This document shows positions 157 through 51,265 of a stretch of 64,000 nucleotides of DNA, piece after piece. The position numbers and the translations under genes are program-made. The notes under the pieces are model-generated. The model saw nothing but the letters and a program-made list of their open reading frames with translations, was not told the DNA's origin and did no database searches. This DNA comes from Deltaproteobacteria bacterium (lineage in GTDB: Bacteria > Desulfobacterota > Dissulfuribacteria > Dissulfuribacterales > QOAL01), in assembly GCA_024275145.1 (NCBI GenBank), contig JAJRZR010000093.1, forward strand, positions 7,228 to 71,227, written 5' to 3'. Every line of letters begins with the position of its first letter. Position 1 is the first letter of the stretch.

Positions 157-248
<92 letters not shown>

Positions 249-22934: not shown

Positions 22935-25900
22935 ATGTGGATTAGGCGGATCAGTTTCAAAATTTTAGCAGTTGTCCTGATCTTTCTAGCCGGCGGGATA
23001 TTCATGGCGCAGTGGGCACTCGAGGGGGCCCGGGCCAGGAACCAGAAATATTGGGCACAACGTATCCGGCAGGAGGCAAGGGGCACGGACCTTGAGATCA
23101 CTATCCTTAAGACCTACGCGGACATGTTGTCCGATGATCCTTATGTGCATCACATACTGGCAGATCCTGAAACGGCCAGTGGAGAGGATCGGTGGATGGC
23201 CAGGAGACATTTGGGCGCAGTGGCCGTACGCCCTGGGATTCTTGGTGCCTTCCTTCTGGATGCCGAGGGAACCTGTGTGCTTTCGACCCAGAAGGGTCTG
23301 CCAGGGAAGAATTATGCCTTTCGTCCCTATTTCAAAGGGGCCATGTTCAGTGGACAGGGCTTTTATACCTCCGTGGGGGTCAGCTCTGATTCACTGGATT
23401 TCTATTTTGCCTCCAGGGTTTCTACTGGGGGTAAAGCCATTGGGGTAGCGGTGATCAAGATTGCAAGGGATTTCTTTTCCATTGTGCGGCAAGGACAATC
23501 CGCGACCGGCGACCGCACTCTCCACCTATCCAGGCCATTTAATGCCCTTGCAACAGAGCAGGGCATAATAATCGGTTGCGGCCCAGGTCTCTACGTACTT
23601 GGTCCATTGTCCAGATCCATATACCAACCCGGTTACTTGGACAGGCATCCTTCTGGTATGAATCCACGATCCGTGTCGGAATTGTATCCTAGCGATAGAA
23701 GCAATTACGGCATTTCTGCAAAGGGAGGTCAGGGTGTCAAACAGGCAGTAGGGTCCCTTGGTTTTCCGGCAGGTACGTGGAGACGCCTCAAGACACGGGG
23801 GGCGATAAGGATCAATAATCCGAAGTATGGAGACTTCTATCTGGAGATAGTACCGCTTGATGTAAACGGTCTGGTTTTATTCCATTGTATGCCAGCCGAC
23901 ATGGCGGCTTCTTTCATTCCTGCTTCGGAACCCGTTTACGCCATCATCGCCGCATTTATGGTAACCCTGGTAGCCCTTATCGTTCTCTATCAACTGCTCA
24001 TATCGAAACACGCAGCCCTTCGGGTGGCCAACAGCCGTTTGAAGGATGAGCATCAGGAATACAGCAGGCTCTTTTCCCGGTACAAGACACTCATAGATGC
24101 TACCAGTGAAGGATTCTGGATAGTCGATGCGGAACAGCTCCAGATACTAGAGGTAAACGACGCAATTTGCCGGATGCTGGACTATGACAGACAGGCACTG
24201 ATAGGTAAGACCCCTTTTGATCTGGTGGATGACAAGAATCGCAAGATTCTGATGGAACAGGCCTCACAAAAGGGCAAGGATCGTTGTCTGTTCGAACTAG
24301 AGCTGCTGACCAGGGACGGGCAGGTGCGCTACGTTAGAATATCCTCCATCAAGATCACTGGGCAGGTAGGGGAAGGTGATCTTCGTTTTGCCTTCATTAC
24401 CGATCTTACCGATTATGTAAGGTCCCAGCAACAAATAAGGAAGCTTTCGGTGGCCGTGGAGCAGAGCGCAAATACCGTGGTCATTACGAATACCCAGGGA
24501 GAAATAGAATATGTAAACCCGAAGTTCTGCCAGGTTACAGGCTACAGCAAGGATGAGATCATGGGTAAAAATCCCAGGCTGCTCAAGTCAGGTCTCCAGA
24601 GCAGGGGATTTTATCAGGATCTCTGGAACACCATATCCTCTGGTGCGGTATGGAAGGGCGAATTTTGTAACAAGAAGAAGAACGGAGATGTTTTTTGGGA
24701 AAGCGCCACTATTTCGCCAGTCAGGGATGAACAGGGCAATATTTCCCATTACATAGCGATCAAAGAGGATATAACCGACAAGATAAGATTGAGGACCAGG
24801 CTTGAGGAGACGGCGGCAGAGCTTGATCTTATTATTGAAAATGCCGGGATAGGCATAGCGTACATAAAAAACAGGAGGCTTGTTCGATTAAACAGCGCAA
24901 TGGCCAGACTCTATGGAGCAAGGCCCGATGAATTGATAGGTAAAGACACCTCTTTTATCTATGCCTCCATGGATGACTATGAAAACTATGGCAAGGAAAT
25001 ATATTCCAGGTTGGCAAACGGGGAGACCGTAGTCAAAGAACTTCCATTCAACAGGAAGGACGGAAGCACAATATGGGGCCGGCTTACCGGTAAGGCATTG
25101 GATCCGGGTGATCCTGATGGGGGATCCATATGGATGTTGGAGGATATCACCAGAAGGAAGGCCATGGAGGCTGCCATGGCAAGGAAGGATGCCATCCTCG
25201 AGGCAGTGAGCATGACCTCGAGCCTCCTGCTTACAGGTATCGATTGGAGAGCAGCTGCAGGGCAATTTTTATCTGCCCTCGGCGGTGCCTCGGCGGTAAC
25301 CCGTGCATCAATTCTGAAGCTAGAGAAGAACAAGACTGGTGCCACGGATATAAACGGCGTAGCCCACTGGGCCAGTCCCAATGTTGTATCCAGTTTTTCG
25401 GATTTCCTTGATGCCTTGTCGGACAAAACAGTCCTTTTGCAATCTGTGTTGGGCAGGTTAAAGGACGGAGAGATAGAGGTCATGTATCTCCTTCTTGATT
25501 CTCCCGCAGGTATACAAGAGGAAGGACACCCTGGCGGCATCATGTCTTCTGTCTGTTTATGTCCCATAATTCTTGAAGGCAGTCTTTGGGGGATGCTGGC
25601 CTTTGAGAATTTTGGAAACGAAAGAACATGGTCGGAGGCAGAGCTTGAGGCCTTTAAAGTGGCAGCAAATGTAATATCCGCTGCAATACAGAGGGAATAT
25701 TTTGAATTGGAGAAGAGGCTTGAGGAATTCAAGTTTACTACCATCATATCAAATGCAAACAGCATAATTCTCAGGGTGGATGCGTCCGGTCGGGTTTTGT
25801 TTTTGAACAGGTTTGGTCTAGAGTTCTTTGGTTATACGGAAGACGATATCCGTGGGGAAGAGGCCATCGGCACCATTTTTCCAGAGGGGGAAGGTGTTGC

Positions 25901-28112
25901 AAGCGCCCTGAGGCGTCTCATTGAAGATCCCCATCCCCCTTCAGGAGACTACTATTCCAGCGAGGGCGAAAGTATCCGTGGGGATGGTCGCCATGTATGG
26001 ATATCATGGACCAATACCCCGATTACCGATTCGAATGGAAGGCTTAAAGAAGTACTTTCCATCGGGCACGATCTTACCCGTCAAAAAGAGATAGAAAAAA
26101 GGCTGAGAGAGGCCAGCGAGGCCAAGAGCCGGTTTGTTGCAAACATGAGCCATGAAATCCGTACCCCGCTCAATGCAGTCATAGGTATGGCGGACCTGGT
26201 TATGAAGACAAGGCTTGATCCTGTACAAAAGCAGTATGTTTCAGCGATCCAAGCCGGTGCCAATACCTTGTTGTCTCTTATAAACAACATACTTGATTTC
26301 TCAAAGATCGAAGCCGGTCAGATGGTACTGGAGCGTAAGGTTTTCGAACTTGACAAGGTCATGGAGGAATCAGTGCGGATAATTGCCGCCAAAGCACATG
26401 CAAAGGATCTTGAAATCCTGTGTCACTGGGAGCCGGATGTTCCTCTTAAGCTCGTAGGGGACGAACTCAGGTTGTCCCAGATCTTCTTGAATCTTATGGG
26501 GAATTCGGTGAAGTTTACCGAAGTGGGCGATGTTGTACTTGATTGTAGCCTGGAAGGTATAGAAGATGATATTGCAATCCTCCACTTCAGGGTAATAGAT
26601 ACGGGGATAGGTATTCCAGAGGGTGAGCAGAAAAATATCTTCGAACCCTTTACCCAGGCCGATACCTCTGTAACCCGGCGGTTTGGTGGTACAGGGCTTG
26701 GGCTTTCGTTGTGTATGAGGCTTGCAAAACTCATGGATGGAGGCCTATGGGTAGAGAGTACAGAGGGCATGGGTACTACGTTCCACCTGCGGCTGAGATT
26801 GCCGAGGGCACAAGATATATCGGACATGTCGTTGCCCGATGGCATTGCTCCCATGGATTGGCCCGTCCTGGTGGTTTCACCCAATCATTGGCTTAGGCTC
26901 GTTATCAAGGATCTGCTTGTTCCCTATGGTTTTCCTGTGACTGGTATGGGTGATCCTGCTGTCATTGCCAATTTTCTTTCCGGCGATCTGAAAGGATGCA
27001 GGGCTAGGCTGATATTCATAGATGAGGTCGTTACGGAGACCGCTTCAGTGGTATACGCTGACCAGGGAGGGCGATCTCCCCATCTTATCCTCCTTGACAA
27101 GGCATTTGCAGGAGGGCCTGACAGCACTGCAGGAGGTGATTCAGGATTTATCCAATGTCTGCACAAGCCGGTTTTCAAGGCTCAATTGTTGAACATCGTC
27201 AGCCAGATAATACTAGGAAAGCCATTTCTTGAACCTGGCATAGATCTCCGGCTGGATATTGCAGGTAGAGCCTCGGGCAGGTTGTCTGCCAGGGTGTTGT
27301 TGGTAGAGGATAACGAGCTTAACCAGCAGCTTGCTATGGCCATTTTATCTAACGCCGGTCATGAGTTTAGCCTTGCAGCTGATGGCCTGGATGCGCTTGA
27401 ACAGCTTTCGAAAGAGACCTTTGATCTGGTCCTGATGGATGTCCAGATGCCAAGGATGGATGGAATACTTGCGACCAGGGTGATCAGGGCCGTTGAGGCA
27501 GGAAGGGAACCAGCGGGTGCAGGGCAGCTTTCCCGCAAACTTCTCGATGGCTTGAAGAGGAACCTGGCAGGGAAGCACATCCCTATAATAGCCATGACTG
27601 CCCATGCCTTTCTGGAAGACCGGGACAACTGCATGGCCGCCGGGATGGATGATTATCTTACGAAACCCTTCAAACCCAAAGAGATAAACCAGGTCATTGC
27701 CTGGTCTCTGAATCAGGGGGAATCACACACAGGGAAGCACCTGCCGGATCAGTCACCTTATAAAGAGGCCGGGAAGGCCCGGGCTGTACGACAAGAACTT
27801 GATATGGAGGCAGTAAAGAGATATCTCGTAGAGACCTTTGGCCTGACCCCAGAGGAAATGGAAGGGATGCTTGAGACCATTTCCCTCTCCCTGGAGCCGG
27901 TTCTTGAAAAGGGTAAAGACGCTGCGATATCCGGGCGTCATCTGGAGCTTTCCGAGGCGGCACATTCCATTAAGGGGATACTTTTAAACCTTGGCCTTGA
28001 AGAGTTGGCTGAAAAGGCGTTGCAAATCGAGGTAAATAGTAGGAAGCAGGCTGCGTTCCCATACCAACAGGCGTTTTTCGAACTAGAGGACCGTCTCAGG
28101 CCATTGCTTTAG
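22935..28112 (+). CDS. Giant (1725-aa) hybrid sensor histidine kinase: periplasmic sensor, TM, several PAS/GAF modules, HisKA/HATPase, degenerate receiver, true receiver, HPt
   Basis: N-terminal TM, then a roughly 300-aa extracytoplasmic region, then a second TM. PAS-like repeats are present (e.g. GKNPRLLKSG...WKGEFCNKKKNGDVFW). H-box SHEIRTPLN has its His codon at 26151-26153. Receiver Asp in LVLMDVQMP is at 27438-27440. HPt motif AAHSIKG has its His at 27963-27965. Confidence 0.9.
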   Translation: MWIRRISFKILAVVLIFLAGGIFMAQWALEGARARNQKYWAQRIRQEARGTDLEITILKTYADMLSDDPYVHHILADPETASGEDRWMARRHLGAVAVRPGILGAFLLDAEGTCVLSTQKGLPGKNYAFRPYFKGAMFSGQGFYTSVGVSSDSLDFYFASRVSTGGKAIGVAVIKIARDFFSIVRQGQSATGDRTLHLSRPFNALATEQGIIIGCGPGLYVLGPLSRSIYQPGYLDRHPSGMNPRSVSELYPSDRSNYGISAKGGQGVKQAVGSLGFPAGTWRRLKTRGAIRINNPKYGDFYLEIVPLDVNGLVLFHCMPADMAASFIPASEPVYAIIAAFMVTLVALIVLYQLLISKHAALRVANSRLKDEHQEYSRLFSRYKTLIDATSEGFWIVDAEQLQILEVNDAICRMLDYDRQALIGKTPFDLVDDKNRKILMEQASQKGKDRCLFELELLTRDGQVRYVRISSIKITGQVGEGDLRFAFITDLTDYVRSQQQIRKLSVAVEQSANTVVITNTQGEIEYVNPKFCQVTGYSKDEIMGKNPRLLKSGLQSRGFYQDLWNTISSGAVWKGEFCNKKKNGDVFWESATISPVRDEQGNISHYIAIKEDITDKIRLRTRLEETAAELDLIIENAGIGIAYIKNRRLVRLNSAMARLYGARPDELIGKDTSFIYASMDDYENYGKEIYSRLANGETVVKELPFNRKDGSTIWGRLTGKALDPGDPDGGSIWMLEDITRRKAMEAAMARKDAILEAVSMTSSLLLTGIDWRAAAGQFLSALGGASAVTRASILKLEKNKTGATDINGVAHWASPNVVSSFSDFLDALSDKTVLLQSVLGRLKDGEIEVMYLLLDSPAGIQEEGHPGGIMSSVCLCPIILEGSLWGMLAFENFGNERTWSEAELEAFKVAANVISAAIQREYFELEKRLEEFKFTTIISNANSIILRVDASGRVLFLNRFGLEFFGYTEDDIRGEEAIGTIFPEGEGVASALRRLIEDPHPPSGDYYSSEGESIRGDGRHVWISWTNTPITDSNGRLKEVLSIGHDLTRQKEIEKRLREASEAKSRFVANMSHEIRTPLNAVIGMADLVMKTRLDPVQKQYVSAIQAGANTLLSLINNILDFSKIEAGQMVLERKVFELDKVMEESVRIIAAKAHAKDLEILCHWEPDVPLKLVGDELRLSQIFLNLMGNSVKFTEVGDVVLDCSLEGIEDDIAILHFRVIDTGIGIPEGEQKNIFEPFTQADTSVTRRFGGTGLGLSLCMRLAKLMDGGLWVESTEGMGTTFHLRLRLPRAQDISDMSLPDGIAPMDWPVLVVSPNHWLRLVIKDLLVPYGFPVTGMGDPAVIANFLSGDLKGCRARLIFIDEVVTETASVVYADQGGRSPHLILLDKAFAGGPDSTAGGDSGFIQCLHKPVFKAQLLNIVSQIILGKPFLEPGIDLRLDIAGRASGRLSARVLLVEDNELNQQLAMAILSNAGHEFSLAADGLDALEQLSKETFDLVLMDVQMPRMDGILATRVIRAVEAGREPAGAGQLSRKLLDGLKRNLAGKHIPIIAMTAHAFLEDRDNCMAAGMDDYLTKPFKPKEINQVIAWSLNQGESHTGKHLPDQSPYKEAGKARAVRQELDMEAVKRYLVETFGLTPEEMEGMLETISLSLEPVLEKGKDAAISGRHLELSEAAHSIKGILLNLGLEELAEKALQIEVNSRKQAAFPYQQAFFELEDRLRPLL

Positions 28113-29378: not shown

Positions 29379-30230
29379 TTAAAATTCTACTGGTAGCTTT
29401 TGTACCTCAGCCCTGGTAAATACCGGGCCGTCCTTGCAGACGTATACCGGTCCCACGTTGCAGTGACCACATACGCCAAGGCCACACTTCATCCGGTTTT
29501 CAAGGGAGAGATATACCTGGTCGTCTGTCCAGCCGATCTTTTCCAGTGGCGGCATGGTAAACTTTATCATGATGGGGGGACCACATATGAGGGCGGCGGA
29601 GTTCTCCGGTGATGGGGCAACCTGCCCGGCAATGGTGGGCACGAAGCCCACCAAGCCGTCCCATCCAGGGGCATCCTGGTCGATAGTGACAAACATTTCC
29701 ATGTCATCCCGTTGGGACCATGCCTTAAGCTCTTCTTTGTACAATAGCATCCCCGGCGTTCTGGCACCATATATCACGGTGATCTTACCGTAATCCTGTC
29801 TATGGGCCAGCATATATATCAGGGTAGCCCTGAGAGTGGTGAAGGCGAATCCACCCGCGATTATGACGATATTCTTTCCTTTAAGCCCCTCGTCTACCGG
29901 GAAACCGTTACCAAGGGGACCCCTTATACCGATTCTTGCCCCGACATCCATCTTGTGCAGAGCCGTTGTAACCACCCCCGCCCTGTTGACCGTAAAGAGA
30001 AGGTGGCCCTTTTCCGTTGGAGAAGATGCAATACCTATGGGTATCTCACCTTTGCCTGCCAGTGACAGCATGGCAAACTGTCCTGGTATGTGGTTCCAAC
30101 TGGCCATATCTTCCGGCTTTTCAAGGATGATCCTGTAGGTCTTGAGGTTCTGGTCCTCTGTTTCTATGGTAATAGCATCTATCCTTCCAGGGTACGGGAG
30201 ATAGGGGTTTTTTTGATCTGTATTTTTCAT
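29379..30230 (-). CDS. FlxA-like FAD/NAD(P)-binding oxidoreductase with C-terminal [2Fe-2S] motif (AsrB / sulfhydrogenase-gamma family)
   Basis: From ATG 30230 the product is about 283 aa. Ferredoxin-reductase-type fold (RPISIAS-like PIGIASSP, GPLGNGF, IIAGGFAF) and C-terminal CGLGVCGHCNVG. The track extends it to 30326, inside the upstream gene. Confidence 0.75.
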   Translation of the reverse strand: MKNTDQKNPYLPYPGRIDAITIETEDQNLKTYRIILEKPEDMASWNHIPGQFAMLSLAGKGEIPIGIASSPTEKGHLLFTVNRAGVVTTALHKMDVGARIGIRGPLGNGFPVDEGLKGKNIVIIAGGFAFTTLRATLIYMLAHRQDYGKITVIYGARTPGMLLYKEELKAWSQRDDMEMFVTIDQDAPGWDGLVGFVPTIAGQVAPSPENSAALICGPPIMIKFTMPPLEKIGWTDDQVYLSLENRMKCGLGVCGHCNVGPVYVCKDGPVFTRAEVQKLPVEF

Positions 30231-30238
30231 GGCATGTT

Positions 30239-31267
30239 TTATTGAATCGAAAGGAGGTCCCTCATTACCTCCCTGATGTCTATATTTACCGGGCATTCCC
30301 TGATACAGCGTCCACAGCCTACACATGAAAGCGGTCCGAAACGTTCGGGAAAGTATTTCAGCTTGTGCATGAAGCGGTTTCTCACCCGTTGGATCTTTTG
30401 CCCCCGGGGGTTGTGGCCGGATGCATGTTGTGTAAATAGCGGGAACATGCAGGAATCCCAGTATCTTATCCTCCTGCCCTTGCCCTTTACGGTTTCATCC
30501 TGGATGTCAAAGCAGTAACAGGTTGGGCACAGGAATGTACAGGCACCGCAATTGATACAGGAATCGGCAAGTTTTTGCCAGAAGGTGGCATTGTAGAGGT
30601 CCATCAGTGCCTTTTTTCTAAGGATTTCCGCCGGGCTTCCTGCAGGCCCTGTCCCTTTTTGTGCCTGTTTCCGTAAGGCCTCAAGTTGTTTCCTTTCTTC
30701 TGGTGATGCCTCCTTGGTATCATGTAGATGTCCCAGCAGTTCTTTTCCCTTCTCGCTCAGGACTGCGGCCAGGTAACCTCCTTCGATCTTGGTCATGGCA
30801 ATATCCATTCCCTCGGTACCCATAGGGGAACCTCCGGTCCATGAACAGAAACAGGTGCTGCATGGCCGTTCGCATGTAAAGCCTACTATCAGGGTGGTAT
30901 CCTTCCTGACCTTGAAATAGGGATCGTTGGCAAAGGGAAGTGAATTCAGCATGACACTCCTGGCATCGCACGGTCTGACCCCCAGTATGATCCTTTCCCG
31001 GCCTTTCCCCATGGCGGGTCTGGGTACATAGGCATCTCGGTCTCCTGACCTGGTTGAATACTCCAGCAAGGTCTCTGGTTGCGGGAAGAAGAAGACCTTT
31101 ATGGATGCCCTAGGTACTCCCTCGGCAGGTTCATTGAATGCCAAAGGTTCGATGCGTTGCCAGCCAACCTTGCCGTTTCCTTCCACAGGAGAAAACAGGT
31201 CCCTGGTTTCGTTCCACCTGGTCAGCAAGGTTTTCAGGTCGGAATTGTCAAGTTTTAGTATCTTCAC
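30239..31267 (-). CDS. FlxB-like iron-sulfur protein (AsrA / sulfhydrogenase-beta family)
   Basis: 342 aa. Cys clusters CSTCFC, CINCGACTFLCPTCYC and CVGCGRCIRECP. The start overlaps the upstream stop in ATGA. Confidence 0.72.
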   Translation of the reverse strand: MKILKLDNSDLKTLLTRWNETRDLFSPVEGNGKVGWQRIEPLAFNEPAEGVPRASIKVFFFPQPETLLEYSTRSGDRDAYVPRPAMGKGRERIILGVRPCDARSVMLNSLPFANDPYFKVRKDTTLIVGFTCERPCSTCFCSWTGGSPMGTEGMDIAMTKIEGGYLAAVLSEKGKELLGHLHDTKEASPEERKQLEALRKQAQKGTGPAGSPAEILRKKALMDLYNATFWQKLADSCINCGACTFLCPTCYCFDIQDETVKGKGRRIRYWDSCMFPLFTQHASGHNPRGQKIQRVRNRFMHKLKYFPERFGPLSCVGCGRCIRECPVNIDIREVMRDLLSIQ

Positions 31268-32322
31268 TTTTCGCTTCCCCCTTGTGTACCCTGTTTTTTC
31301 GATCCGGCGATGATGAATGTATCTGGATCTTCCGGCTGGTAGGTGGTAAGGGGAAGGGGAGAATTGAGATCAAGCCCTGGTTCCGATGCAAAAAGCTCCA
31401 GGCAGTCCTTCTGGAGTTTGCGGGTAAAGAGCCTCATCTTTATCCCCATGGGGCAGGCACTTTCGCACGCGCCGCAGTCGGTACAGCGGCCAGCACAATG
31501 GTATGCCCTGAGTATGTGAAAGGTTGCCGTATCGGTTTTATCTATGCTTTTCCCTACCCACTGGGGATGGGAATCGTCAACAAAGCAGGTGGGACAGTAG
31601 CAAAGCGGGCAGGCGTTTCTGCATGCGTAGCAGCGGATGCAGGTAGCAATCTCTTCCTGGAACCATGCCCACCGGGAACCTGCGTCCATACGTTCGATCT
31701 CCTCTATCCGGGCAAACGGCTCATGGACACGCCTTTCCGGAACGGTGGGGCCGATCTTTTTGTCAAGGATTACAGGCGATGGATGGACGCATGTAAGGCA
31801 GTTGTCACGAAGTACCTCTTGCCTTGCCGTTTCCATCTTGAAGTCCCTTCCAGAGATGATCACTCTTTCATCCGTCTCTTCAAGGGACTGGATCTCCCTA
31901 CCCCCTGCCAGGACCTCCAGCTTCCTTCTGTCGATCATGCCATGACTGTCCACTCCCAGGATGACCAGCCTCTCCCTGTCCATCTGATTTTCCTGGATCT
32001 GGATTACCATGTTCCTGGACCAGCATCCGGTGGCGATTACCCCTACCCTGGGTAATGGTCCCTCAGGAGGCGGTTCCCCAGGGCGCCTGGGTGGCTCAAG
32101 GGATTTCAGCAGGCCTGGCAGGTAATTGGCCAGGTTCATCACGCATAGGCCGTTCCATACCAGTTTGTCCGTTTCCTCTGGGGTTCTCGCGACGAAGGGC
32201 CTGGTAACAGTAGGAAGGCTTCCCTTGACAAAGCCAAGGAAGGCAGCGACCTTGCCGGACTCCAGGAGATCCTTTGCCTCCCTTCTGATTGCTTCAGTAG
32301 TTTGTGAAAAGAGAGTTTCCAT
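31264..32322 (-). CDS. FlxC-like iron-sulfur protein
   Basis: 352 aa. Cys clusters CIRCYACRNACPLCYCPTC and CTDCGACESACP. Size and position match the second Fe-S subunit of Flx-type modules. Confidence 0.65.
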   Translation of the reverse strand: METLFSQTTEAIRREAKDLLESGKVAAFLGFVKGSLPTVTRPFVARTPEETDKLVWNGLCVMNLANYLPGLLKSLEPPRRPGEPPPEGPLPRVGVIATGCWSRNMVIQIQENQMDRERLVILGVDSHGMIDRRKLEVLAGGREIQSLEETDERVIISGRDFKMETARQEVLRDNCLTCVHPSPVILDKKIGPTVPERRVHEPFARIEEIERMDAGSRWAWFQEEIATCIRCYACRNACPLCYCPTCFVDDSHPQWVGKSIDKTDTATFHILRAYHCAGRCTDCGACESACPMGIKMRLFTRKLQKDCLELFASEPGLDLNSPLPLTTYQPEDPDTFIIAGSKKQGTQGGSEK

Positions 32323-32787: not shown

Positions 32788-35700
32788 CTAGCAGATTTCC
32801 ATGGCTGCCTCGATAGCCGCCATTATCTGTTCGTTCCCGATATTTTTCAGTGTCACCGCATCAGAGCGGCATCCGGCTACACATGCACCGCATCCCTTGC
32901 ACATGGCGGTGTCTACCGTGGCGAGCCTGGAGTCCTCATCAAGGTGTATGGCATTATAGGCGCAGACCATGGTACATACACCGCAGCCTACACATTTTCC
33001 ATGGTCTACCACAGCGGTGATGCTCTCGGCGGGTATGGCGTCCTGCGCCAGTATTGTGGATGCCCTGGCGGCAGCGGCCTTGGCCTGGGCGATGGTTTCG
33101 TCCATTGGCTTCGGATAGTGACAAAGACCTGCCATGAATATCCCGTCTGTGGCAAAATCCACAGGCCTTAGCTTCATGTGGGCCTCGAGGAAGAAGCGAT
33201 CTGATGTCATGGAGCATTTAAAGGCCCTAGATACAACGTCTGCATCAACCTTAGGCCTTACTGCTGTTGCAAGGACGAGCATGTCAGGATGCAGCCTGAC
33301 CGGCCGATCCAGGATGGGGTCTTTTGCCTCTACCTGGATCTTGCCCTGTTCATCCCAGACCTTGGGGATGTTGTCAAGGTCATATCTTATGAAGACTATG
33401 CCCTTTTCCCTTGCCCTTTGGTACAACCGCTCCTTTTCCCCATAGGTTCTTATGTCCCTGTAGAGCATGAATATTTCCATGTCAGGGTTCAGCTCCTTGA
33501 GGTGTAGCGCCTGGTCGATGGCATGGGTACAGCAGACCCTTGAGCAATAGGGTTTCTCAGATACCCTGGAACCCGCGCATAGTATGAATACGGTCTGTCC
33601 CTTTTCTTTGAGTGCCGGGTCTTCCTTGATGAATCTCTTGTCCAGTTCCAGGAGTACGTGTACCTCTGGATGCTTGCCGTAGAGGTAGTTCCATCTGCCT
33701 TCCCTTGGTTTGTGGGAGCCTGCCCCTATGGCAATGATTGCTGCGCCATGGGAGACCTTGCTACCGTCCGATAGCAGGGTCTTGAATTGTCCCACGGAAC
33801 CCTCGACACGCTCTACGCTGGTCCCTAGGCGTAGGTCAATATGGGAGTGGCCTTCCACTTGACGGCATAGTCCCTTGAGATATTCCTGTACCAGGTCGCC
33901 CTGCCATGTACGGTAGAATTTACGCGCGTGGCCACCAAGCCGATCCTTCCTTTCTACTAGGACTACCGGAATCCCCTGATCTGCAATGGAAAGTGCCGCT
34001 GTCATGCCGGCAACGCCTGCCCCAAGCACCAGTGCCCTTTTTACTACTGACACGGTGTTGTAGGCCAGTGCCTCGTCCTGTCGCACCTTTGCCACCGCCA
34101 TCCTGACGAGGTCCTTAGCCTTTTGTGTTGCCTCGTCTGGGAATTTTTGATGTACCCAGGAATCCTGGTCCCTGATATTTGCCATCTCGAACAAGAACTT
34201 GTTGAGGCCGGCATCCCTCAGGGTCTCCTGGAACAGAGGCTCGTGCGTTCTTGGGGTACACGAGGCTACTACCACCCGGTTGAGCCCTTCCCTTTTTATG
34301 ATCTCTGCCATCTGGTTAATGGTGTCTTGGGAACAGGTAAACAGGTTGTTCTGGGCGAATACCACGCCGGGGAGCGTTCGTGCATAATCGGTGACCGCTG
34401 CTACGTCGACCACACTTGCAATATTTATCCCGCATGAGCATACAAATACCCCTATCCTTGGTGGTTCGGCCCACACGTTTCTTTCATCAGGGTATTCCTT
34501 TTTCCTAGTCTCGCTCCATCTTGACGGTGCAAGGACCCTGCTGGCTTCCAGTGCAGAGGCACTCGCCTCCATGACGGACTGGGGGATATCCTTTGGCTCG
34601 GATACTGCTCCACAGACGCAGACCCCCGGCCTGTTGGTTGATACCGGCCTGAAGGCACTGGTTGCCACGAAATTATTGGGGTCAAGTTCTACACCAAGAC
34701 GCCGTGCAAGTTCAGCGGCCTGCCTGTCCATCTCAAGGCCCACTGAGAGCACGACCAGATCGAATTCTTCCTGGTTGATGAGTCCGTCATCACCTACGTA
34801 TCTGAGTATCAGGTTGTCATCGTGGCCTGCTGGCAGGACACTGTGTATCCGGCAGCGATGGAAGTTTACGCCCTCGGCCCTGGCCCTGTCGTAGTAGGCC
34901 TCGAATTCTTTGCCGTGTGTCCTCATGTCCATGAAGAAGATGCTGGTGGCCAGGTCTGGCCCTTGGGCGTGCTCCCTGGCAATTACGGCCTGTTTTATCG
35001 CATACATGCAGCATACCGAGGAACAGTAACCATGGCAGGCACGGTTGATGTCCCTTGAGCCAACACATTGTAGCCAGGCTATTCGCCTAGGTTCCTTGTG
35101 ATCAGAGGGACGCTCCATATGTCCAAGGCATGGTCCCGAAGGACTAAGCAGACGTTCGAACTCCATGGCTGTGACGACGTTGGGAAGCCTGCCATAGCCG
35201 GTGAAATCCAGGATGGAAGGGTCGAATGGTGAAAAGCCCAATGCCAGTATTACAGAACCCACCTCGATTTGTATCTCCCGGGGTTGGTCATCGAAATTTA
35301 TGGCTCCGGAGGGGCAGACCTTCTGGCACATGCCACACCTTCCTGGCTTCTTGAGCCAGATGCATTGATCAGGATCTATGGCATATTTCAGGGGTACGGC
35401 CTGGGGATATTTGAGATAAATGGCCTTTCTCTTCCCAAGCCCCAGATCGAATTCGTTCGGGACTTTCTTGGGGCACTTTTCTGCACAGGTGCCGCAGGCG
35501 ATACATTTTGCAGGATCAACGTATCTGGGATTCTGCCGTACGGTGGCGGTAAACGCACCTTCTTCACCTTCAAGGGCCAGGACCTCTGAAAGGGTCATGA
35601 GGTTGATATTGAGGTGCCGACCGCATTCCACCAATTTGGGGGAGAGTATGCAGGCGGAGCAGTCATTTGTTGGGAATGTCTTGTCTAACTGGGACATCCG

Positions 35701-35838
35701 GCCGCCTATGGCCGAACTTTTTTCGATCAGGTGGACATAAAATCCACTGTCTGCCATATCAAGGGCGGCTTGAACACCTGCAATACCGCCTCCCACCACC
35801 ATTACGGAGCCCTTGGGCCTATCGGAAGGATTGCTCAT
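32788..35838 (-). CDS. hdrA: Large (about 1016-aa) HdrA-like flavoprotein with two FAD-binding modules and multiple Fe-S clusters
   Basis: Two dinucleotide-binding motifs (VMVVGGGIAGVQAALDMADSG and ALVLGAGVAGMTAALSIADQG). Two C-x-G-S-R regions (LQCVGSRD, ILCAGSRV). Ferredoxin motifs CIACGTCAEKCP, CGMCQKVCP, CVGCGVCTMVCA and CKGCGACVAGC. ATG 35838 overlaps the upstream TGA as ATGA. Confidence 0.9.
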   Translation of the reverse strand: MSNPSDRPKGSVMVVGGGIAGVQAALDMADSGFYVHLIEKSSAIGGRMSQLDKTFPTNDCSACILSPKLVECGRHLNINLMTLSEVLALEGEEGAFTATVRQNPRYVDPAKCIACGTCAEKCPKKVPNEFDLGLGKRKAIYLKYPQAVPLKYAIDPDQCIWLKKPGRCGMCQKVCPSGAINFDDQPREIQIEVGSVILALGFSPFDPSILDFTGYGRLPNVVTAMEFERLLSPSGPCLGHMERPSDHKEPRRIAWLQCVGSRDINRACHGYCSSVCCMYAIKQAVIAREHAQGPDLATSIFFMDMRTHGKEFEAYYDRARAEGVNFHRCRIHSVLPAGHDDNLILRYVGDDGLINQEEFDLVVLSVGLEMDRQAAELARRLGVELDPNNFVATSAFRPVSTNRPGVCVCGAVSEPKDIPQSVMEASASALEASRVLAPSRWSETRKKEYPDERNVWAEPPRIGVFVCSCGINIASVVDVAAVTDYARTLPGVVFAQNNLFTCSQDTINQMAEIIKREGLNRVVVASCTPRTHEPLFQETLRDAGLNKFLFEMANIRDQDSWVHQKFPDEATQKAKDLVRMAVAKVRQDEALAYNTVSVVKRALVLGAGVAGMTAALSIADQGIPVVLVERKDRLGGHARKFYRTWQGDLVQEYLKGLCRQVEGHSHIDLRLGTSVERVEGSVGQFKTLLSDGSKVSHGAAIIAIGAGSHKPREGRWNYLYGKHPEVHVLLELDKRFIKEDPALKEKGQTVFILCAGSRVSEKPYCSRVCCTHAIDQALHLKELNPDMEIFMLYRDIRTYGEKERLYQRAREKGIVFIRYDLDNIPKVWDEQGKIQVEAKDPILDRPVRLHPDMLVLATAVRPKVDADVVSRAFKCSMTSDRFFLEAHMKLRPVDFATDGIFMAGLCHYPKPMDETIAQAKAAAARASTILAQDAIPAESITAVVDHGKCVGCGVCTMVCAYNAIHLDEDSRLATVDTAMCKGCGACVAGCRSDAVTLKNIGNEQIMAAIEAAMEIC

Positions 35839-37067
35839 GGCTTTACCATTGCCTTTTCTATCCAGTTCCACAGGTGGGTAGTCTTCCACTTGCCACCATA
35901 GTGGTCACATATATCGAGTACCTGGGTATGGCAGTTGTGGCAGGGGGTTATCACTACGTCAGCGCCAGTGGAGGCCAATTGGTCGAATTTTATCTTGCCG
36001 AATTTCCTCCTGTTTTTTACGAAGCCGGCCTGAAGTGCCCCGCCTCCTCCACCGCAGCAATAGTTATTCGATTTGTTGGGCCAGACATCGATGAAGTTTT
36101 CTGCACCTACAACCTTCTTTATTACGAATCTCAGATCCTCGGCTACCTGGTCCCCTAGCCCCTGGCGTACCAGTTTGCATGGATCCTGTACGGTAAATTT
36201 CACTCCCTCGGTATTCCAGGATGGATCGACCACCAGTTTCCCCTCACGTATCCACTGGGCATAGAGAGTGATGATGCTTATGAATTCGAAGTTGTGGGGT
36301 ATCTTGAACCTTCGCAACCCCTCCAGGGTCGCGTAGAACATGTGGCCTCACTCGGTATTTATGTAGTATTTACAACCCAGTGCATCCACGGTCTCTGCCT
36401 GCATCCGTACCGTATATTCCCAGTCGTCCGGGTCCCCGGTAAACAGGCAGTAATTGGCTCCGTCCCACCACTTGGACGAGTAAGTCCAGTCTATGCCGAC
36501 CCTGTGCAGGATCTTCCATAGGGGAACCATCTCTTCTGGTTCCACAGTGGGCTCCTTGGCGTTTTGGTTCAGGTAGAACATTGCCCCCTTCTTATCGATT
36601 GGCGCTTCGAGATCCGACCATTCTGGTTCGTTCTTCCTGACCTCGGCAAGGACATCGCCAACCACCCATACGAAATCCTCGTTTGGGATCCCCGTGCTGT
36701 TCGATTTTTTCTGAAGATCACATGATCGTTGCAGGTTGGGGGGCCTTTGTTCCTTGGGGCGCATTCCCCTTATCTCATAGACTATTCTTCCAACGTCTAT
36801 GCCCATTGGACAGGCGTGCTTGCATCTTTGGCACATGGTGCAGGAATAGATCCAGTTGGTGCTCAATACTTCTTCATCCTGCCCAAGGACGAGGAGCCTC
36901 AGGAATTTTCTGGGATCAAGGCCTTCCAGGCCGGTGGCAGGGCATCCGCTGGCACAAAGTCCGCAGGTGAGGCAGTAATCGATGTGGGCATCGGGAAAGG
37001 CGGCCTGAATCTGTTCCTTTACCCTGGTTTTAAGGGACGATAGATCTATTGGCTCATAGGGTGCCAT
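35835..37067 (-). CDS. HdrD-like (fused HdrC+HdrB type) Fe-S/CCG-domain protein, read through one in-frame UGA (probable selenocysteine)
   Basis: The track ORFs 36348..37079 and 35835..36341 are in the same frame and separated only by TGA (36350-36348): ...YYINTE-[UGA]-GHMFYATLEG.... The N-terminal part has CLTCGLCASGCP and CTMCQRCKHACP. The C-terminal part has NYCCGGGGG and PCHNCH. ATG 37067 is preceded by GAGG. Confidence 0.7.
36313..36333 (-). promoter_or_regulatory. SECIS-like hairpin 14 nt downstream of the UGA
   Basis: On the minus strand, CGCGACCC (36333-36326), loop UGGAG (36325-36321), GGGUUGCG (36320-36313). This gives 8 bp including one G-U. Three more pairs are possible beyond a 1x1 mismatch. 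The apical loop starts 25 nt after the U of UGA. Confidence 0.5.
36348..36350 (-). other. In-frame UGA, candidate selenocysteine codon
   Basis: Minus-strand reading: TAC TAC ATA AAT ACC GAG TGA GGC CAC ATG TTC TAC. Coding-like sequence in the same frame lies on both sides. Confidence 0.6.
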
Positions 37068-37246
37068 GGCGTACCTCAACGAGAGTAGGACAGGGTTAAG
37101 ATCAAATTACCATAATTTCTCTACTGCTTTTGCCATAGTGTGTCAAGTATAGAAGGGGGCATTCCCCATCTACTGACCTCGGGTAACAGGTTGGTATATA
37201 GGGTACGTCCTTGACCTGCTACCAGCTGCTCCGTATAGTCTCGCAT

Positions 37247-46593: not shown

Positions 46594-47799
46594 ATGTCTT
46601 TTCTTAGACAGATCGTACCGGTCTTTTGTGTAGTCCTTGTAATAGGCCTGTCCGGCTGTGGGCAGAAAATCAAGGACTCCATCGTGCCTGTAAACACGCC
46701 TACCCATAGTAGAACAAATGAGCAGATCGTTATCCTGCCCTTTGCCGATTATTCCGTAGGAAGGCATACGGATGATGCACTTCGCCGACAGATAAAGATA
46801 CAGGAGGCCCTGGCCTATAGGCTGGCACAAAGGGGATTTCTAGTTCCGGTTGAAGAGGACGTCGTTCAGTACCTGTCGGATATAGGGGTTATCCTGATCG
46901 TAAAGGCATCCACGGAGGCAAACCGGCCCTATGCGGACCTGAAAAGGGAGATAGGGACGGGATGGTCTCCGGAGATGGAATCGGAGATACGAACGCTACT
47001 GATGCAAAACAGGGGATTAAACGATTCAGAAACCAGGATGGAAATCACCAAGGTGGGATTGGACCGTGGAACCTTACAACAGATAGGTCGCTATTTCGGA
47101 GCAAATTACGTACTCAGGGGGCGTATCGTTGAATATGAGATACGTAACAACCAGGCCCTCAGCCCGATTCAGCAAGGTATCCTTCCGTTCTTTTTTGACA
47201 GTGCTTCCGGGTTTCTGTTTGGATTTGCCGATTCGGGCCGTTATGACCTGTGGCAGGACATGGCTGTAGGCGGAGGCCTGGGTGCCCTTTTCGGTTCCTC
47301 TGCCAATACGCCCTTCAATGCGCCTGCTAAGAGACAGGTGGTTTCCGGCCATCCCATGTTCGGCGTATCGCGCACGGTTGAAAGAGGAGGCTACAGCAAC
47401 AGTAACGGACTCAATGCTGCGGTATGGGGCGGGACAGGTGCCGCTGTCGCCTATCTGGCATCAAAGGGTGGGAATGTACCCCAGGCGGTTATCCAGTTGA
47501 GTCTTGCCCTGCAGGATGTCCACACCGGAAAGGTAGTATGGGAGAACCGGGTGGAAAAACGGGTGGAGCCGGAGTCTGCATGGGCAGATCCGTCCGAAAG
47601 GCTTCACATGGATACGGCGGTGGAGGAGGCTGCTCGGATTTTGGCAGACAACTTGATGGCCTCTTTCCGGCTCAATGCCTCACGTGGGGCGTCACCAGTC
47701 GCATCTTCCGGCAGTATCGGGCCCAGACCGTCGGGCAAGGTCCCTGACAAGGTACCCCCTCCTGCCAATCCGCCTGAGCCCGCACCAGAATCCCCATAG
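46594..47799 (+). CDS. Lipoprotein with a CsgG/LpoB-like core, Gly-zipper segments and a Pro-rich tail
   Basis: MSFLRQIVPVFCVVLVIGLSGC has lipobox L-S-G-C, and GGAGG lies upstream. VILPFADYS..., GANYVLRGRIVEYE and IQLSLALQDVHTGKVVWE recall CsgG-family strands. Gly-rich AVGGGLGALFG and VWGGTGAAVAYL. The tail is PPPANPPEPAPESP. Confidence 0.65.
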   Translation: MSFLRQIVPVFCVVLVIGLSGCGQKIKDSIVPVNTPTHSRTNEQIVILPFADYSVGRHTDDALRRQIKIQEALAYRLAQRGFLVPVEEDVVQYLSDIGVILIVKASTEANRPYADLKREIGTGWSPEMESEIRTLLMQNRGLNDSETRMEITKVGLDRGTLQQIGRYFGANYVLRGRIVEYEIRNNQALSPIQQGILPFFFDSASGFLFGFADSGRYDLWQDMAVGGGLGALFGSSANTPFNAPAKRQVVSGHPMFGVSRTVERGGYSNSNGLNAAVWGGTGAAVAYLASKGGNVPQAVIQLSLALQDVHTGKVVWENRVEKRVEPESAWADPSERLHMDTAVEEAARILADNLMASFRLNASRGASPVASSGSIGPRPSGKVPDKVPPPANPPEPAPESP

Positions 47800-47872
47800 A
47801 CATGGGGCTCCTGATCCCAGGATTATATTTTGTAATCATCATGGGCCTGGACATGTCAAGGAGAAGAACAAG

Positions 47873-50800
47873 ATGATCCGTTTAGAATGGTTGGCACGGT
47901 CTTTCCACCGGTTTTTATTAATACAGATTCTTGTCAGTTTGTCTGTTTCGTCAATTGCCGTAGTCGTTTACGCCTCCAATGAAGGTCCGCCAATTGAGAT
48001 TACGGTGGCCGAATACGATCAACAAAATCCCCATGTGGTGGCCCTCCCGGACAAAAATCTATGGTTCGTTGTGTGGGAGGACTGGAGAACCGTTGCCAAT
48101 CCCGTCGATACCAATACCGGGGCGGATATATGGGGCCAGTTTATTGATGGAGATGGAAATTTTTGTGGTGAGCCTGTCCTGATATCCGATGAGGATAACG
48201 ATGGGAAAGGTGATCCTGGTAACCAGACCTTTCCCCGTGTGGCCTATGATCAGGGCGACAGCCGGCTGGGTGTGGTATGGCAGGACACCCGTGGCCGGGG
48301 TGTCTTCTTCAGGGCTATAGATGTATCTGATTGTTCTTCCCTGCAATTTTCTTCGGAGCTCGAGTTCAGTTACAATCCAGTTTTCGGGGATTCACTTCTT
48401 CTGGGCAGGGCCAAGCCAAAGATAGTCTATGACCCAGTCAGAGACCAGTTCTGGGTGGCCTGGACAGAAAACAGATCGGCCAGGAAGCGTGTAACCGGCA
48501 ATCCGTTTGGCTGTAGTGCCAATGCCTTTTCCTGGACAGTCGGGGATACCAGCATGGTTTCCTTTGCTGCGCTCAGCAGCCCTGCCTCCGGCAATATAAG
48601 CGAGGTGGTTCCACCCGATGTAATCAGGACAGATGATAATATCAATGTAAGGGAAATAAGCCATAGCGTTGCCTGTACAACAGAGATTATCACCTATGAG
48701 TTTTTTGATTCGGTCAACAACGTGGATATAGCAGTGGATCAATCATCAGGTGACATCCTTTTGGCCTGGGAAGGGGTGAGGCGTAAGCTTGTCGTCACGA
48801 ATAACAGCGATGAGATCGAAAACAGCCCTACCGATTGTTTCGACTGCGGCGCAGACGGGGTTAGCAGTGAGGCTGAAATCTCATCGTTCGATGGGGATCC
48901 CAATGTGGCCAACATATACGGTATCCACATGAACGAGGTCCCATTGTCCGAGATCATGGCCATGCGTCTGAGCGATGCGGACAATCTTGCCTACAATCCA
49001 TCGGTAATGGCAGATCCTGTCTCGGGCAAGTACCTGGTCGCCTGGGAAGATCTGCGTGGAGGGGCCAATTATACCAAGATTTATGGACAACTCGTCTACA
49101 CTACAGGTAACAAGTACAACACCAATTTCATAATAGGTTACCAGGATACCAATAGCGACGGTGAACTCGACGAGATTGTGAAGAATTCCAGGCAGACCAA
49201 TCCCTATGTCGGCTATGATTATACGAATCAACGCTTTTTCGTGGCCTGGCAGGATGGTCGCAATGGTTCGGTTTCGGTAGAAAACCTGGATATCTTCGGT
49301 CAATATGTGGACGGTGAAGGTTCACTCAGGGGTAGCAATTATCTACTTAGTGTCTCTTCAAACGGTATCCCCGCCGCGGGGAATCAGTATTCACCTGCCA
49401 TCGCCTTCAATCAATCGAATCACATGTTCCTGGGCGTGTGGAAGGATGCACGCAACTATGCAACCACGCGATCGGACATATATGGACAGCGTTTTACCAT
49501 AGGCCAGCCGCAACTGACTGTCCTTCATATGGACAATAGCCTGTTGTCACCCAGCCTCATAGATTTTGGGAGCCGTCTGTCAGGCGAAACCACGTCTTCC
49601 TCCTTCAAGATAAAGAATACGGGCGACATCATGCTGTCCGTACAGAATCTTTCCTCTCTGACAAGTCCCTTTGCCTATGTAGGCCTTCCAGACGAGATGC
49701 AGGATGGCGATACCACAGGTATCGACTTGATGCCAGGTGGAGAGTTTACCGTCACCGTATCCTTTACACCGACCGCGGCGGGTTCCTTTCATGATGACAT
49801 TTTGATCACATCGAACGCCGGTGAGGTTACTATCAATCTCCAAGGGCTTGGATTGCAACAGAATCCCAGTACCTCCTCGGTATCGGTCAATCCATCGGCG
49901 GTATCCTTTGGATCTGTCGCTGTGGGTGATGCGGTGTACCAGAGTGTGGTGCTGCAAAATGACGGCAATACCGCTGTCAATCTGGTGGAGGTGGAAGAAC
50001 CTTCGGAGCCATTTACAGTACTTGGTGGGCCATCCTCAGGTCAGAAGATAGATGCTGGCACCTCGGTGAATTTCGTTGTCAAGTTTGCGCCTACAAAGGG
50101 AGGCAGCAATAATAGCCGTCTTGCCTTCATATTCAAGGAGACAAATCCGGTTATAATCCAGCTTTCTGGTACCGGGTCGGAATCCACTGACCCTCCATCC
50201 ATCAGCCTGAGCACCAGTTCAGTGGGATTCGGCGAGGTCACTACCGGTAGCTCCAAGTCCGTAAATATCAAGATCTCCAATAACGGAGGCCAGACCGCAA
50301 AAATCCTTCACATAGATGCGCCGTCGGATGGCTTCACATACTCAAATGTCAGCAGCGGCACGGAGATAGAGCCTGGCAACTCGGTGCGGATGGTCATAAC
50401 CTTCAGCCCGCAGACGGCCAGTGAATACAGTGGCACTTTTGACATACTGTTCTCACATCTGACTAACCCTCTACATATAGCTGTAAAGGGTACAGGCCAG
50501 GATCCTTCCACTGCATCGGGTCCACCGGACATAGTCTTGTCTGACAGTAGTATCAGCTTTGCAGATACTGCAGTTGGGAATACGCGGTCCGAGCACTTTA
50601 CGATCACCAACGATGGTAAAGGTGCCGCCACCTTGCTTCAGGTGGATCTATGGGGGGATAGTTTCACTGTTGACGGTCTGGATCAGGGCATGACCATAGA
50701 ACCAGGTCAGACCATTCATGCGGTCATCGGCTTTAAACCTGCCAGCGAAGGAAGTGCCAGTGGGGAGCTGAGGTTGCTATTTAACCACCTGATGGATCCA

Positions 50801-51265
50801 ATGGTGGTATATCTTGAAGGTACGGGTGTGAATGAAGAGGACTATACCCCGGCTGGTGATGAAACAACAGCCAGCGGGCAGACCCCGCCATGGCTGAACC
50901 CATCTCTTCAACCACCTGAGGTATTGGTCTGGCAGGATTCCGCCGGTGGGGCAAAATGGAAGATCACATCCAATGATTTCACCTCCTATACTGCCAACAG
51001 GTATCTGATCGTTGTTACACCCTTTATCGATCCATGGACAGGTGGATGGCTTTTCTTCTCAAGAAGGGCCGATGGGTCCTTTGTGAAAGGGTTGTATCCT
51101 GAGGCAGCAAACTGGTCTATAACCACCTGGTCTGACTCGGTAGGTTCCTTGGATGACGTGATACCGGACGGCTACAAGGGAGCGGGGAAGTACTATCTTA
51201 TCTTTGGAATAATCATGCCGGATAATATCCATGCATACTACGATTGGATTTCCTGGACCAGGTAA
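47873..51265 (+). CDS. 1130-aa secreted or cell-surface protein: signal anchor, seven W-x-[DE]-x-R repeats (propeller-like), four tandem Ig-like (ASH / choice-of-anchor-D-like) modules, and a unique C-terminal domain
   Basis: AAGGAG lies 9 nt before ATG 47873. The N-terminal hydrophobic segment is FLLIQILVSLSVSSIAVVVYA. Repeats and modules are listed in the findings. The track ORF extends upstream to 47675 without support. Confidence 0.8.
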   Translation: MIRLEWLARSFHRFLLIQILVSLSVSSIAVVVYASNEGPPIEITVAEYDQQNPHVVALPDKNLWFVVWEDWRTVANPVDTNTGADIWGQFIDGDGNFCGEPVLISDEDNDGKGDPGNQTFPRVAYDQGDSRLGVVWQDTRGRGVFFRAIDVSDCSSLQFSSELEFSYNPVFGDSLLLGRAKPKIVYDPVRDQFWVAWTENRSARKRVTGNPFGCSANAFSWTVGDTSMVSFAALSSPASGNISEVVPPDVIRTDDNINVREISHSVACTTEIITYEFFDSVNNVDIAVDQSSGDILLAWEGVRRKLVVTNNSDEIENSPTDCFDCGADGVSSEAEISSFDGDPNVANIYGIHMNEVPLSEIMAMRLSDADNLAYNPSVMADPVSGKYLVAWEDLRGGANYTKIYGQLVYTTGNKYNTNFIIGYQDTNSDGELDEIVKNSRQTNPYVGYDYTNQRFFVAWQDGRNGSVSVENLDIFGQYVDGEGSLRGSNYLLSVSSNGIPAAGNQYSPAIAFNQSNHMFLGVWKDARNYATTRSDIYGQRFTIGQPQLTVLHMDNSLLSPSLIDFGSRLSGETTSSSFKIKNTGDIMLSVQNLSSLTSPFAYVGLPDEMQDGDTTGIDLMPGGEFTVTVSFTPTAAGSFHDDILITSNAGEVTINLQGLGLQQNPSTSSVSVNPSAVSFGSVAVGDAVYQSVVLQNDGNTAVNLVEVEEPSEPFTVLGGPSSGQKIDAGTSVNFVVKFAPTKGGSNNSRLAFIFKETNPVIIQLSGTGSESTDPPSISLSTSSVGFGEVTTGSSKSVNIKISNNGGQTAKILHIDAPSDGFTYSNVSSGTEIEPGNSVRMVITFSPQTASEYSGTFDILFSHLTNPLHIAVKGTGQDPSTASGPPDIVLSDSSISFADTAVGNTRSEHFTITNDGKGAATLLQVDLWGDSFTVDGLDQGMTIEPGQTIHAVIGFKPASEGSASGELRLLFNHLMDPMVVYLEGTGVNEEDYTPAGDETTASGQTPPWLNPSLQPPEVLVWQDSAGGAKWKITSNDFTSYTANRYLIVVTPFIDPWTGGWLFFSRRADGSFVKGLYPEAANWSITTWSDSVGSLDDVIPDGYKGAGKYYLIFGIIMPDNIHAYYDWISWTR

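Follow-up and report, generated by a model that had tools for sequence, protein, structure and literature searches.

When Zhang et al. tabulated 25 bacterial selenoprotein families in 2006, one of them was the 'Fe-S oxidoreductase (GlpC)' family, whose selenocysteine-containing members were found in Deltaproteobacteria within glpC-hdrA-frhD operons (PMC1794560). In a 2026 review the GlpC-like family has the status 'predicted with high confidence', and UGH is given as its selenocysteine (Sec, U) motif (PMC13188914). HdrD4 of Desulfobacterium autotrophicum has been reported as a selenoprotein (PMC2702500), and in the Hdr/Flox gene cluster of Syntrophobacter fumaroxidans a cysteine-rich HdrD (Sfum_1969), which was undetected in the proteome paper on this organism, replaces HdrBC (PMC5947623). 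DsrK, HmcF and TmcB carry a strictly conserved cysteine in the motif T/GECGH, described as the remnant of a lost noncubane-cluster site and proposed to be catalytic next to the one noncubane [4Fe-4S] cluster that is left (PMC10861901). Here we report on a gene of this kind in a 64-kb stretch of DNA (the window; 64,000 nucleotides of contig JAJRZR010000093.1, assembly GCA_024275145.1, labelled Deltaproteobacteria bacterium), where an HdrD-like iron-sulfur (Fe-S) protein is split by a single in-frame UGA codon, and which an earlier note had taken for a probable selenoprotein. From the evidence below we infer, with a probability of about 0.92, that the UGA is decoded as selenocysteine (Sec240) in one Fe-S disulfide reductase of 410 residues. 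The finding is an annotation fix in a known selenoprotein family rather than a discovery.

Results

An in-frame UGA at a conserved cysteine site

Re-reading of the minus strand at the junction gave ...TAC TAC ATA AAT ACC GAG TGA GGC CAC ATG TTC TAC GCG..., in which the two listed open reading frames (ORFs), 36348..37079 and 35835..36341, lie in the same frame with only the TGA at 36350-36348 between them, exactly as the earlier note had it. From ATG 37067 to the terminal TGA this UGA is the sole internal stop. In the ORF list the start is given as TTG 37079; the true start is most likely ATG 37067, which a GAGG precedes by 6 nt and with which the database copy P0009 agrees, its first residues likewise being MAPYEP. 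From this ATG the anticipated product of 410 aa is reached. A search of the coding strand between the two halves for promoter-like or terminator-like sites found none. TGA, TAA and TAG all serve as ordinary stops in the window (15, 10 and 7 genes, respectively), so that the standard genetic code applies.

A protein search covering 5.8 billion sequences returned 2320 matches at E <= 1e-10, and the site was read in the best 120. E-C-G-H stands at the UGA position in 119 of these 120 homologues, all full-length (391-532 aa), the lone exception being the N-terminal piece of the window gene itself, which ends ...YYINTE. The interruption indeed falls where such proteins usually have a Cys, as had been proposed with an ECGH-like context, and the homologues are full-length with the Cys aligned to the UGA, not consistently two genes lacking such a residue. 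The protein-level picture is biased, because gene callers halve the Sec-type genes and each half then scores below an intact Cys-type gene.

At the DNA level, the species-representative genomes with a close relative carry TGA at the exact codon in 13 of 13 cases, with no other internal stop; these 13 are metagenome-assembled genomes (MAGs) labelled Deltaproteobacteria, Desulfobacterales or Thermodesulfobacteriota, and their proteins are 83-96% identical to that of the window. The best 80 metagenomic loci (52-80% identity) have TGA in 71, TGC in 7, TGT in 2 and TAA or TAG in none, counts that, being taken from the best tblastn matches to a Sec-type query, give no unbiased family-wide frequency. 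All 14 close sequences have TGA as their internal codon, yet they differ in the terminal stop (TGA 8, TAG 4, TAA 2), and over all interrupted genes the codon is TGA in 85/85 and TAA or TAG in none. That the interruption lies at a conserved Cys site is far beyond chance, since the TGA aligns with the Cys of 119/120 best homologues and the same codon is TGA at 84 related loci. The suspicion of a selenoprotein is thus strengthened by a codon that is kept among relatives and, as described below, by a SECIS-type hairpin.

In public protein sets the gene is held as two unnamed ORFs (P0009, P0135 and P0136-P0150), which looks like a systematic gene-calling error. The C-terminal piece belongs to a 90%-identity cluster (P0136) of 27 members, of which nine were read, all starting M[FY][YF]ATLEG. 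A cluster representative from Desulfotignum phosphitoxidans (P0065, EMS81429.1), which bears the source name 'oxidoreductase, selenocysteine-containing', was considered as a Sec reference and rejected, as it has Cys (NTECGH) at the site and no U anywhere. In another entry, P0010 (JGI, 532 aa), a Cys-type copy without the CCGGGGG segment runs on into a portion of a second copy, and this portion stops at ...LNTE, where a UGA is to be expected; tandem Cys/Sec paralogues or a chimera of the assembly may lie behind it.

A covarying hairpin behind the UGA codon

A short hairpin with a GGA loop begins 15 nt past the UGA, with its apical loop 23 nt from the UGA and a folding energy of -13.5 kcal/mol for the hairpin alone (Table 1). 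Bacterial selenocysteine insertion sequence (bSECIS) elements have been delimited by an apical loop of 3-9 nt with G at its two opening positions, a stem of 4-16 bp, a distance of 16-37 nt from the UGA and a minimum free energy (MFE) at or below -7.5 kcal/mol (PMC13188914). With its 3-nt GG loop, stem of 8-9 bp, 23-nt distance and -13.5 kcal/mol, the window hairpin lies within all four of these ranges.

Covariation was assessed in 75 distinct Sec-type sequences, which align without gaps. Unguided RNAalifold returned the same 8-bp helix (columns 19-26 with 30-37), in which 90.7% of cells are paired, compared to 21-44% after a shift of the 3' strand by 1-3 columns. Of the eight pairs, four show compensatory changes; where the window's clade has A-U and C-G, for instance, other sequences have G-C and U-A, and the same changes alter the encoded residues from ATLEGL to SVLAGL or AVRAGL. 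The first G of the loop is invariant, and the second position is G in >90% of sequences.

At least seven of the eight pairs are formed in 78 of 79 Sec-type genes, whereas the Cys-type genes (n = 12) form 1-6. One Cys-type orthologue, P0001 (locus L094), is 73% identical to the window protein and retains one of the eight pairs, and its neighbourhood is that of the window: it is flanked on one side by EF-P, LigA and RNase R, and on the other by a 1019-aa HdrA, by FlpD, by two Fe-S proteins and by an NAD-binding subunit. Among the 14 close relatives, ten of 269 degenerate codons with an invariant residue never vary, and four of these ten fall in the seven-codon hairpin (Fisher p = 3e-5).

The locus that encodes another Cys-type orthologue, P0005, also holds an FdhA-like gene interrupted by in-frame TGA (L096:2306-2308) in the classic context CARV*HAPSVAGL; Cys is therefore kept in the HdrD-like gene of an organism that evidently decodes Sec.

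A probable single protein across the UGA codon

The apparent gene pair is almost certainly one protein, since single profile matches cross the UGA and the joined sequence models as one fold, in agreement with the view that these parts form one polypeptide. In NCBIfam, the joined protein gave one match to HmcF over residues 7-396 and single stretches to TmcB (27-407) and DsrK (66-390), all across the UGA and at 1e-36 to 4e-53. The AlphaFold2 model of the joined sequence is one compact unit, with a mean predicted local distance difference test (pLDDT) score of 90.8 and a predicted template modelling (pTM) score of 0.89, in which the UGA position lies in a short loop between strand 234-237 and helix 242-253. 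Among solved structures, the best Foldseek matches were mycobacterial EtfD (9ojn, TMq 0.70) and HdrB chains matched as a whole, over about 290 aligned columns, and the N-terminal part was matched by HdrC. EtfD was not among the hits when the C-terminal 227 residues were searched by sequence against the PDB.

The layout is of the HdrD type, with two CX2CX2CX3CP motifs followed by a CCG domain of the form CXnCCGXnCX2C. Both ferredoxin motifs reported for the upstream piece are present (C32-P43 and C76-P87), and the downstream piece carries one CCG domain, as claimed, with C297, C337-C338-G and C376-x2-C379 inside a Pfam match over residues 292-383. The upstream piece does contain a CCG-type part, but this is nearly a whole degenerate CCG-like domain rather than the first half of one, the break coming before helix 242-253. 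Of its five-Cys motif just C207 (NYC) and Sec240 (TEUGH) remain, so that the two complete five-Cys CCG motifs of methanogen HdrD and HdrB are not found here. By alignment, the cysteines of the C-terminal CCG domain correspond one to one with C153, C193/C194 and C231/C234 of HdrB, and this domain is the predicted site of a noncubane [4Fe-4S] cluster. The N-terminal CCG motif of methanogen HdrB is M-T-E-C78-N-G-C81, and a profile-profile comparison of the two CCG halves of the window protein gave NYC207 with NYC337 as the one aligned pair. The resemblance of T-E-C78 in HdrB to T-E-U240, together with the model geometry, suggests that Sec240 may correspond to HdrB Cys78, a pairing with no significant alignment behind it.

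Two assignments to named families were rejected. The scores against HmcF, TmcB and DsrK (180.7, 164.8 and 123.7) are far under the curated equivalog cut-offs (750, 735 and 400, respectively) and a membrane partner is missing, and a canonical two-cluster HdrD would not fit a protein with only one complete CCG motif.

In the close relatives the median ratio of nonsynonymous to synonymous substitution rates (dN/dS) is 0.020 for the N-terminal half and 0.039 for the C-terminal half, with synonymous sites saturated, from which it follows that both halves are kept by strong purifying selection.

Gene neighbourhood and comparison with described systems

The selenoprotein gene heads an operon of soluble subunits (Table 1). 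Its terminal TGA overlaps the ATG of the downstream hdrA-like gene as ATGA (35835-35838, minus strand), and hdrA translation is therefore probably coupled to ribosomes that have moved past the Sec codon. The HdrA-like protein has two FAD/NAD-type modules (about residues 11-440 and 590-680) and a ferredoxin domain at its end. The AsrB/HydG-like subunit is followed by a FabK-like protein, and RNase R lies upstream of the selenoprotein gene on the opposite strand. The operon order is kept gene for gene in close relatives, and no genes for a membrane cytochrome b or another membrane-complex partner adjoin it. A flavin adenine dinucleotide (FAD)/NAD(P)H subunit stands together with Fe-S subunits, with HdrA and with an MvhD-like FlxD, as in Hdr/Flox operons; the separate HdrB and HdrC subunits of FlxABCD-HdrABC are not found, and the fused HdrD-like selenoprotein is there instead, a layout that matches the S. 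fumaroxidans cluster (PMC5947623). A scan of the window for long ORF pairs joined by an in-frame TGA revealed no second selenoprotein candidate.

On sequence grounds, the window gene is a member of the described 'Fe-S oxidoreductase (GlpC)-like' selenoprotein family, and every family feature tested was found, bearing out the statement that Sec-containing Hdr-related Fe-S oxidoreductases are known in Deltaproteobacteria; the GlpC family, with its UGH motif, is described there (PMC1794560, PMC13188914). Common to both are a single Sec in U-G-H, Cys in homologues, TGA orthologues elsewhere, linkage to hdrA and frhD/mvhD, a deltaproteobacterial host and a bSECIS directly after the UGA. The described operons (glpC-hdrA-frhD-frhG-frhA) have hydrogenase partners, and their hdrA and frhD are often selenoproteins too, whereas the window operon has a double HdrA, MvhD and an Flx/Flox-type NAD(P)H module, and the neighbours are without in-frame UGA.

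Judged by its published description, the HdrD of S. fumaroxidans (Sfum_1969) is, as in the window, a soluble HdrC+HdrB fusion beside HdrA, MvhD and Flox. HdrD4 of D. autotrophicum is reported as a selenoprotein, as is predicted for the window protein, a likeness likewise taken from the published description. With DsrK, HmcF and TmcB the window protein has in common two ferredoxin-type clusters, one complete CCG motif and the T/GECGH site; it differs from them in scoring far under the equivalog cut-offs, in having no membrane cytochrome b partner and in Sec for Cys. Methanogen HdrBC (5ODC) and mycobacterial EtfD (9OJN) have the same fold as the window protein. HdrB holds two complete noncubane clusters and EtfD a linear [3Fe-4S] cluster and a noncubane cluster; a second cluster is unlikely in the window protein, because its first site is reduced to C207 and Sec240.

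Table 1 Coordinates of the selenoprotein gene, its elements and its operon partners in the window.
Feature	Position	Strand	Basis
Complete gene of a predicted selenoprotein, an Fe-S disulfide reductase resembling HdrD (fusion of HdrC and HdrB type) with 410 residues, Sec240 among them; ATG 37067 to TGA 35837-35835	35835..37067	-	Sequence, frame, profile match, fold
In-frame UGA, predicted Sec codon, residue 240, motif N-T-E-U-G-H	36348..36350	-	Cys column, TGA conservation, published UGH motif
Shine-Dalgarno-like GAGG, 6 nt 5' of ATG 37067	37074..37077	-	Sequence
bSECIS-type hairpin CGCGACCCU-GGA-GGGGUUGCG, 9 bp in the window; 8-bp consensus 36314..36332	36313..36333	-	Fold, covariation
Apical loop of the hairpin, GGA	36322-36324	-	
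Extra 3-bp lower stem, extending the hairpin	36309..36337	-	
First ferredoxin-type motif, C32-x2-C35-x2-C38-x3-C42-P43	36939..36974	-	Translation; Pfam Fer4_8/Fer4_17; aligns to HdrC
Second ferredoxin-type motif, C76-x2-C79-x2-C82-x3-C86-P87	36807..36842	-	Translation; Pfam Fer4_8/Fer4_17; aligns to HdrC
Degenerate N-terminal CCG-like domain, about residues 160-243	36339..36590	-	Invariant C207 + C240; NYC207/NYC337; HdrB motif; geometry; HdrB superposition
Complete C-terminal CCG domain (C297, C337, C338, C376, C379)	35919..36194	-	Pfam CCG over residues 292-383; HdrB alignment
Double HdrA-like flavoprotein, 1016 aa, downstream partner	32788..35838	-	HdrA2/HdrA profiles in 3 stretches, under equivalog cut-offs; synteny
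MvhD/FlpD-like (FlxD-type) iron-sulfur subunit, 147 aa	32329..32772	-	VhuD profile 1e-38; HdrA2 C-terminal domain; synteny
Flx/Flox-like module: 352-aa Fe-S protein, 342-aa AsrA/HydB-like Fe-S protein, AsrB/HydG-like FAD/NAD(P)-binding subunit	29379..32322	-	Profiles, synteny

Within the operon, the AsrB-like ORF (29379-30326) overlaps the end of the AsrA-like ORF (30239-31267) by 88 nt on the minus strand, and its profile matches start at residue 36-38; its true start probably lies further downstream. Elsewhere in the window, two adjacent tRNA-Ser genes with the anticodons UGA and GCU occupy 32-119 and 157-248 (plus strand), just upstream of genes for S-adenosylmethionine synthetase and S-adenosylhomocysteine hydrolase. 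Two genes are unusually large: a 1725-aa ORF at 22935-28112 (plus strand) reads by eye as a multi-domain hybrid sensor kinase, and a 1196-aa protein encoded at 47675-51265 (plus strand) has repeated Ig-like (HYDIN/ASH/DUF1573-type) domains.

Alternative readings of the interrupted gene

Several observations weigh against decoding of the UGA as Sec. The GlpC-like family has the status of a predicted one (PMC13188914). Searched against Rfam, the hairpin matched no family, either at the gathering threshold or with E allowed up to 10; taken as a whole, the 68-nt segment has an unremarkable folding energy (z = -1.34), and the mean MFE is alike in Sec-type and Cys-type genes (-17.1 vs -16.2 kcal/mol), so the hairpin signal is confined to the fixed-register pair count. 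No tRNA-Sec, selA, selB or selD was found within the 64-kb window or the fetched flanks: ARAGORN returned no tRNA-Sec for the window itself, for the 13 genome loci or for 60 metagenome loci, and Pfam annotation of 30 further window ORFs no SelA, SelB or SelD. The Sec-decoding machinery of this genome is thus assumed. To these points are added the choice of the 80 metagenomic loci by a Sec-type query, mentioned above, and the ATG behind the UGA.

This ATG (36341) stands two codons past the UGA, with a GAGG 4 nt before it in the window sequence, as the earlier note had observed in naming re-initiation as its alternative. One further reading, which is unlikely, supposes two modes in the window's clade: with selenium, SelB would decode the UGA to give the fused Sec enzyme, and lack of selenium would lead to a stop at the UGA and a restart at the ATG via the embedded GAGG. 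If this were true, both the C-terminal half and the hdrA-like gene coupled through ATGA would go on being translated, and the UGA-ATG pair would act, beyond recoding, as a selenium-sensing switch of the whole operon. What bears on it is that the ATG is present in 18 of 18 sequences of the clade and absent from most other Sec-type genes, a distribution for which Met at ATG 36341 could simply be a lineage-specific residue; the data give the two-mode reading no positive support.

That the UGA is a genuine stop in all circumstances, with a 239-aa HdrC-like piece, to which the first CCG-like domain would belong, assembling non-covalently with a 168-aa CCG piece re-initiated at ATG 36341, is improbable to a still greater degree. 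It can draw on the ATG and its GAGG throughout the window's clade, where some termination and re-initiation is possible, for instance when selenium is lacking; on gene callers, which annotate the split (P0009, and P0136 with its 27 cluster members); and on the natural occurrence of split Hdr-type subunits (HdrB plus HdrC). Yet across the 79 Sec-type genes the codon two past the UGA is ATG in just 18, all from the window's clade, and is otherwise GAA (27), GTC (12), GTG (9), GTA (4), ATA (3) or others. Re-initiation is consequently not a conserved feature of the family, and the alternative is weakened by codons such as GAA, GTN or ATH in the 61 of 79 genes where ATG is absent. The GAGG, for its part, is forced by the coding sequence GAG-UGA-GGN (Glu-Sec-Gly). 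Two polypeptides would leave unexplained why the interrupting stop is TGA in 85/85 when the real stop of the gene varies, would give no role to a covarying hairpin that vanishes exactly where the codon is Cys, and would remove the position of the invariant ECGH cysteine from both pieces; moreover, no full-length homologue is split at the UGA point.

A fused protein made by read-through without Sec, or not only with Sec, is given equally little weight. Here Cys would be inserted via the Sec pathway at scarce selenium, or Trp or Cys by a near-cognate tRNA, with a full-length enzyme containing sulfur only as the result. Selection clearly maintains the full-length protein, Cys works at the site in many orthologues and the Sec machinery of this genome is assumed, all of which such a reading could accommodate. 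What it leaves aside is that the hairpin covaries and fits the SelB-dependent bSECIS model, that the gene belongs to an established predicted selenoprotein family of Sec-decoding Deltaproteobacteria, and that TGC or TGT would suffice without recoding, as in the hairpin-less orthologues.

A pseudogene, or a TGA that is a sequencing or assembly error for TGC or TGT, is effectively refuted: MAG sequence can contain errors and TGA is one substitution away from either codon, but many studies contribute to the 84 independent assemblies in which the same TGA recurs, synonymous divergence is saturated and dN/dS stays at 0.02-0.04 to either side of the codon, the frame is otherwise free of internal stops and frameshifts, and the downstream hdrA-like gene is coupled by ATGA.

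Discussion

Taken as a selenoprotein, the product of this gene would be a soluble HdrD-like Fe-S thiol/disulfide reductase, a fusion in which an HdrC-like domain with two [4Fe-4S] clusters is joined to two CCG domains paired as in HdrB. The hairpin behind the UGA would serve as a bacterial SECIS element, recruiting SelB with its Sec-tRNA(Sec). Sec240 would then stand in for the T/GECGH cysteine, the lone survivor of the lost first noncubane-cluster site, beside what is likely to be a single noncubane [4Fe-4S] cluster at C297, C337, C338, C376 and C379. We suggest that Sec240 acts as a nucleophile on a substrate disulfide, giving a selenenylsulfide that is resolved by the adjacent cluster.

In the operon context, the selenoprotein may form the disulfide-reducing end of an Hdr/Flox-type soluble complex comprising HdrD(Sec), the double HdrA, MvhD, two Fe-S subunits and the FAD/NAD(P)H subunit. 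Electrons would come from NAD(P)H via the Flox-HdrA module, and probably from ferredoxin also, and DsrC-type or low-molecular-weight disulfides are candidate substrates.

The same mis-call affects dozens of related genes, as seen in the DNA-level survey. Protein databases therefore falsely suggest that this subfamily of Hdr/Flox-associated HdrD is Cys-only.

Natural Cys/Sec exchange usually marks redox-active cysteines. In this family the exchange falls exactly on the T/GECGH cysteine, giving independent comparative support to the catalytic role proposed for this residue in DsrK-, HmcF- and TmcB-type enzymes. It also points to a selenium requirement of soluble Hdr/Flox complexes in uncultured Desulfobacterales-like bacteria.

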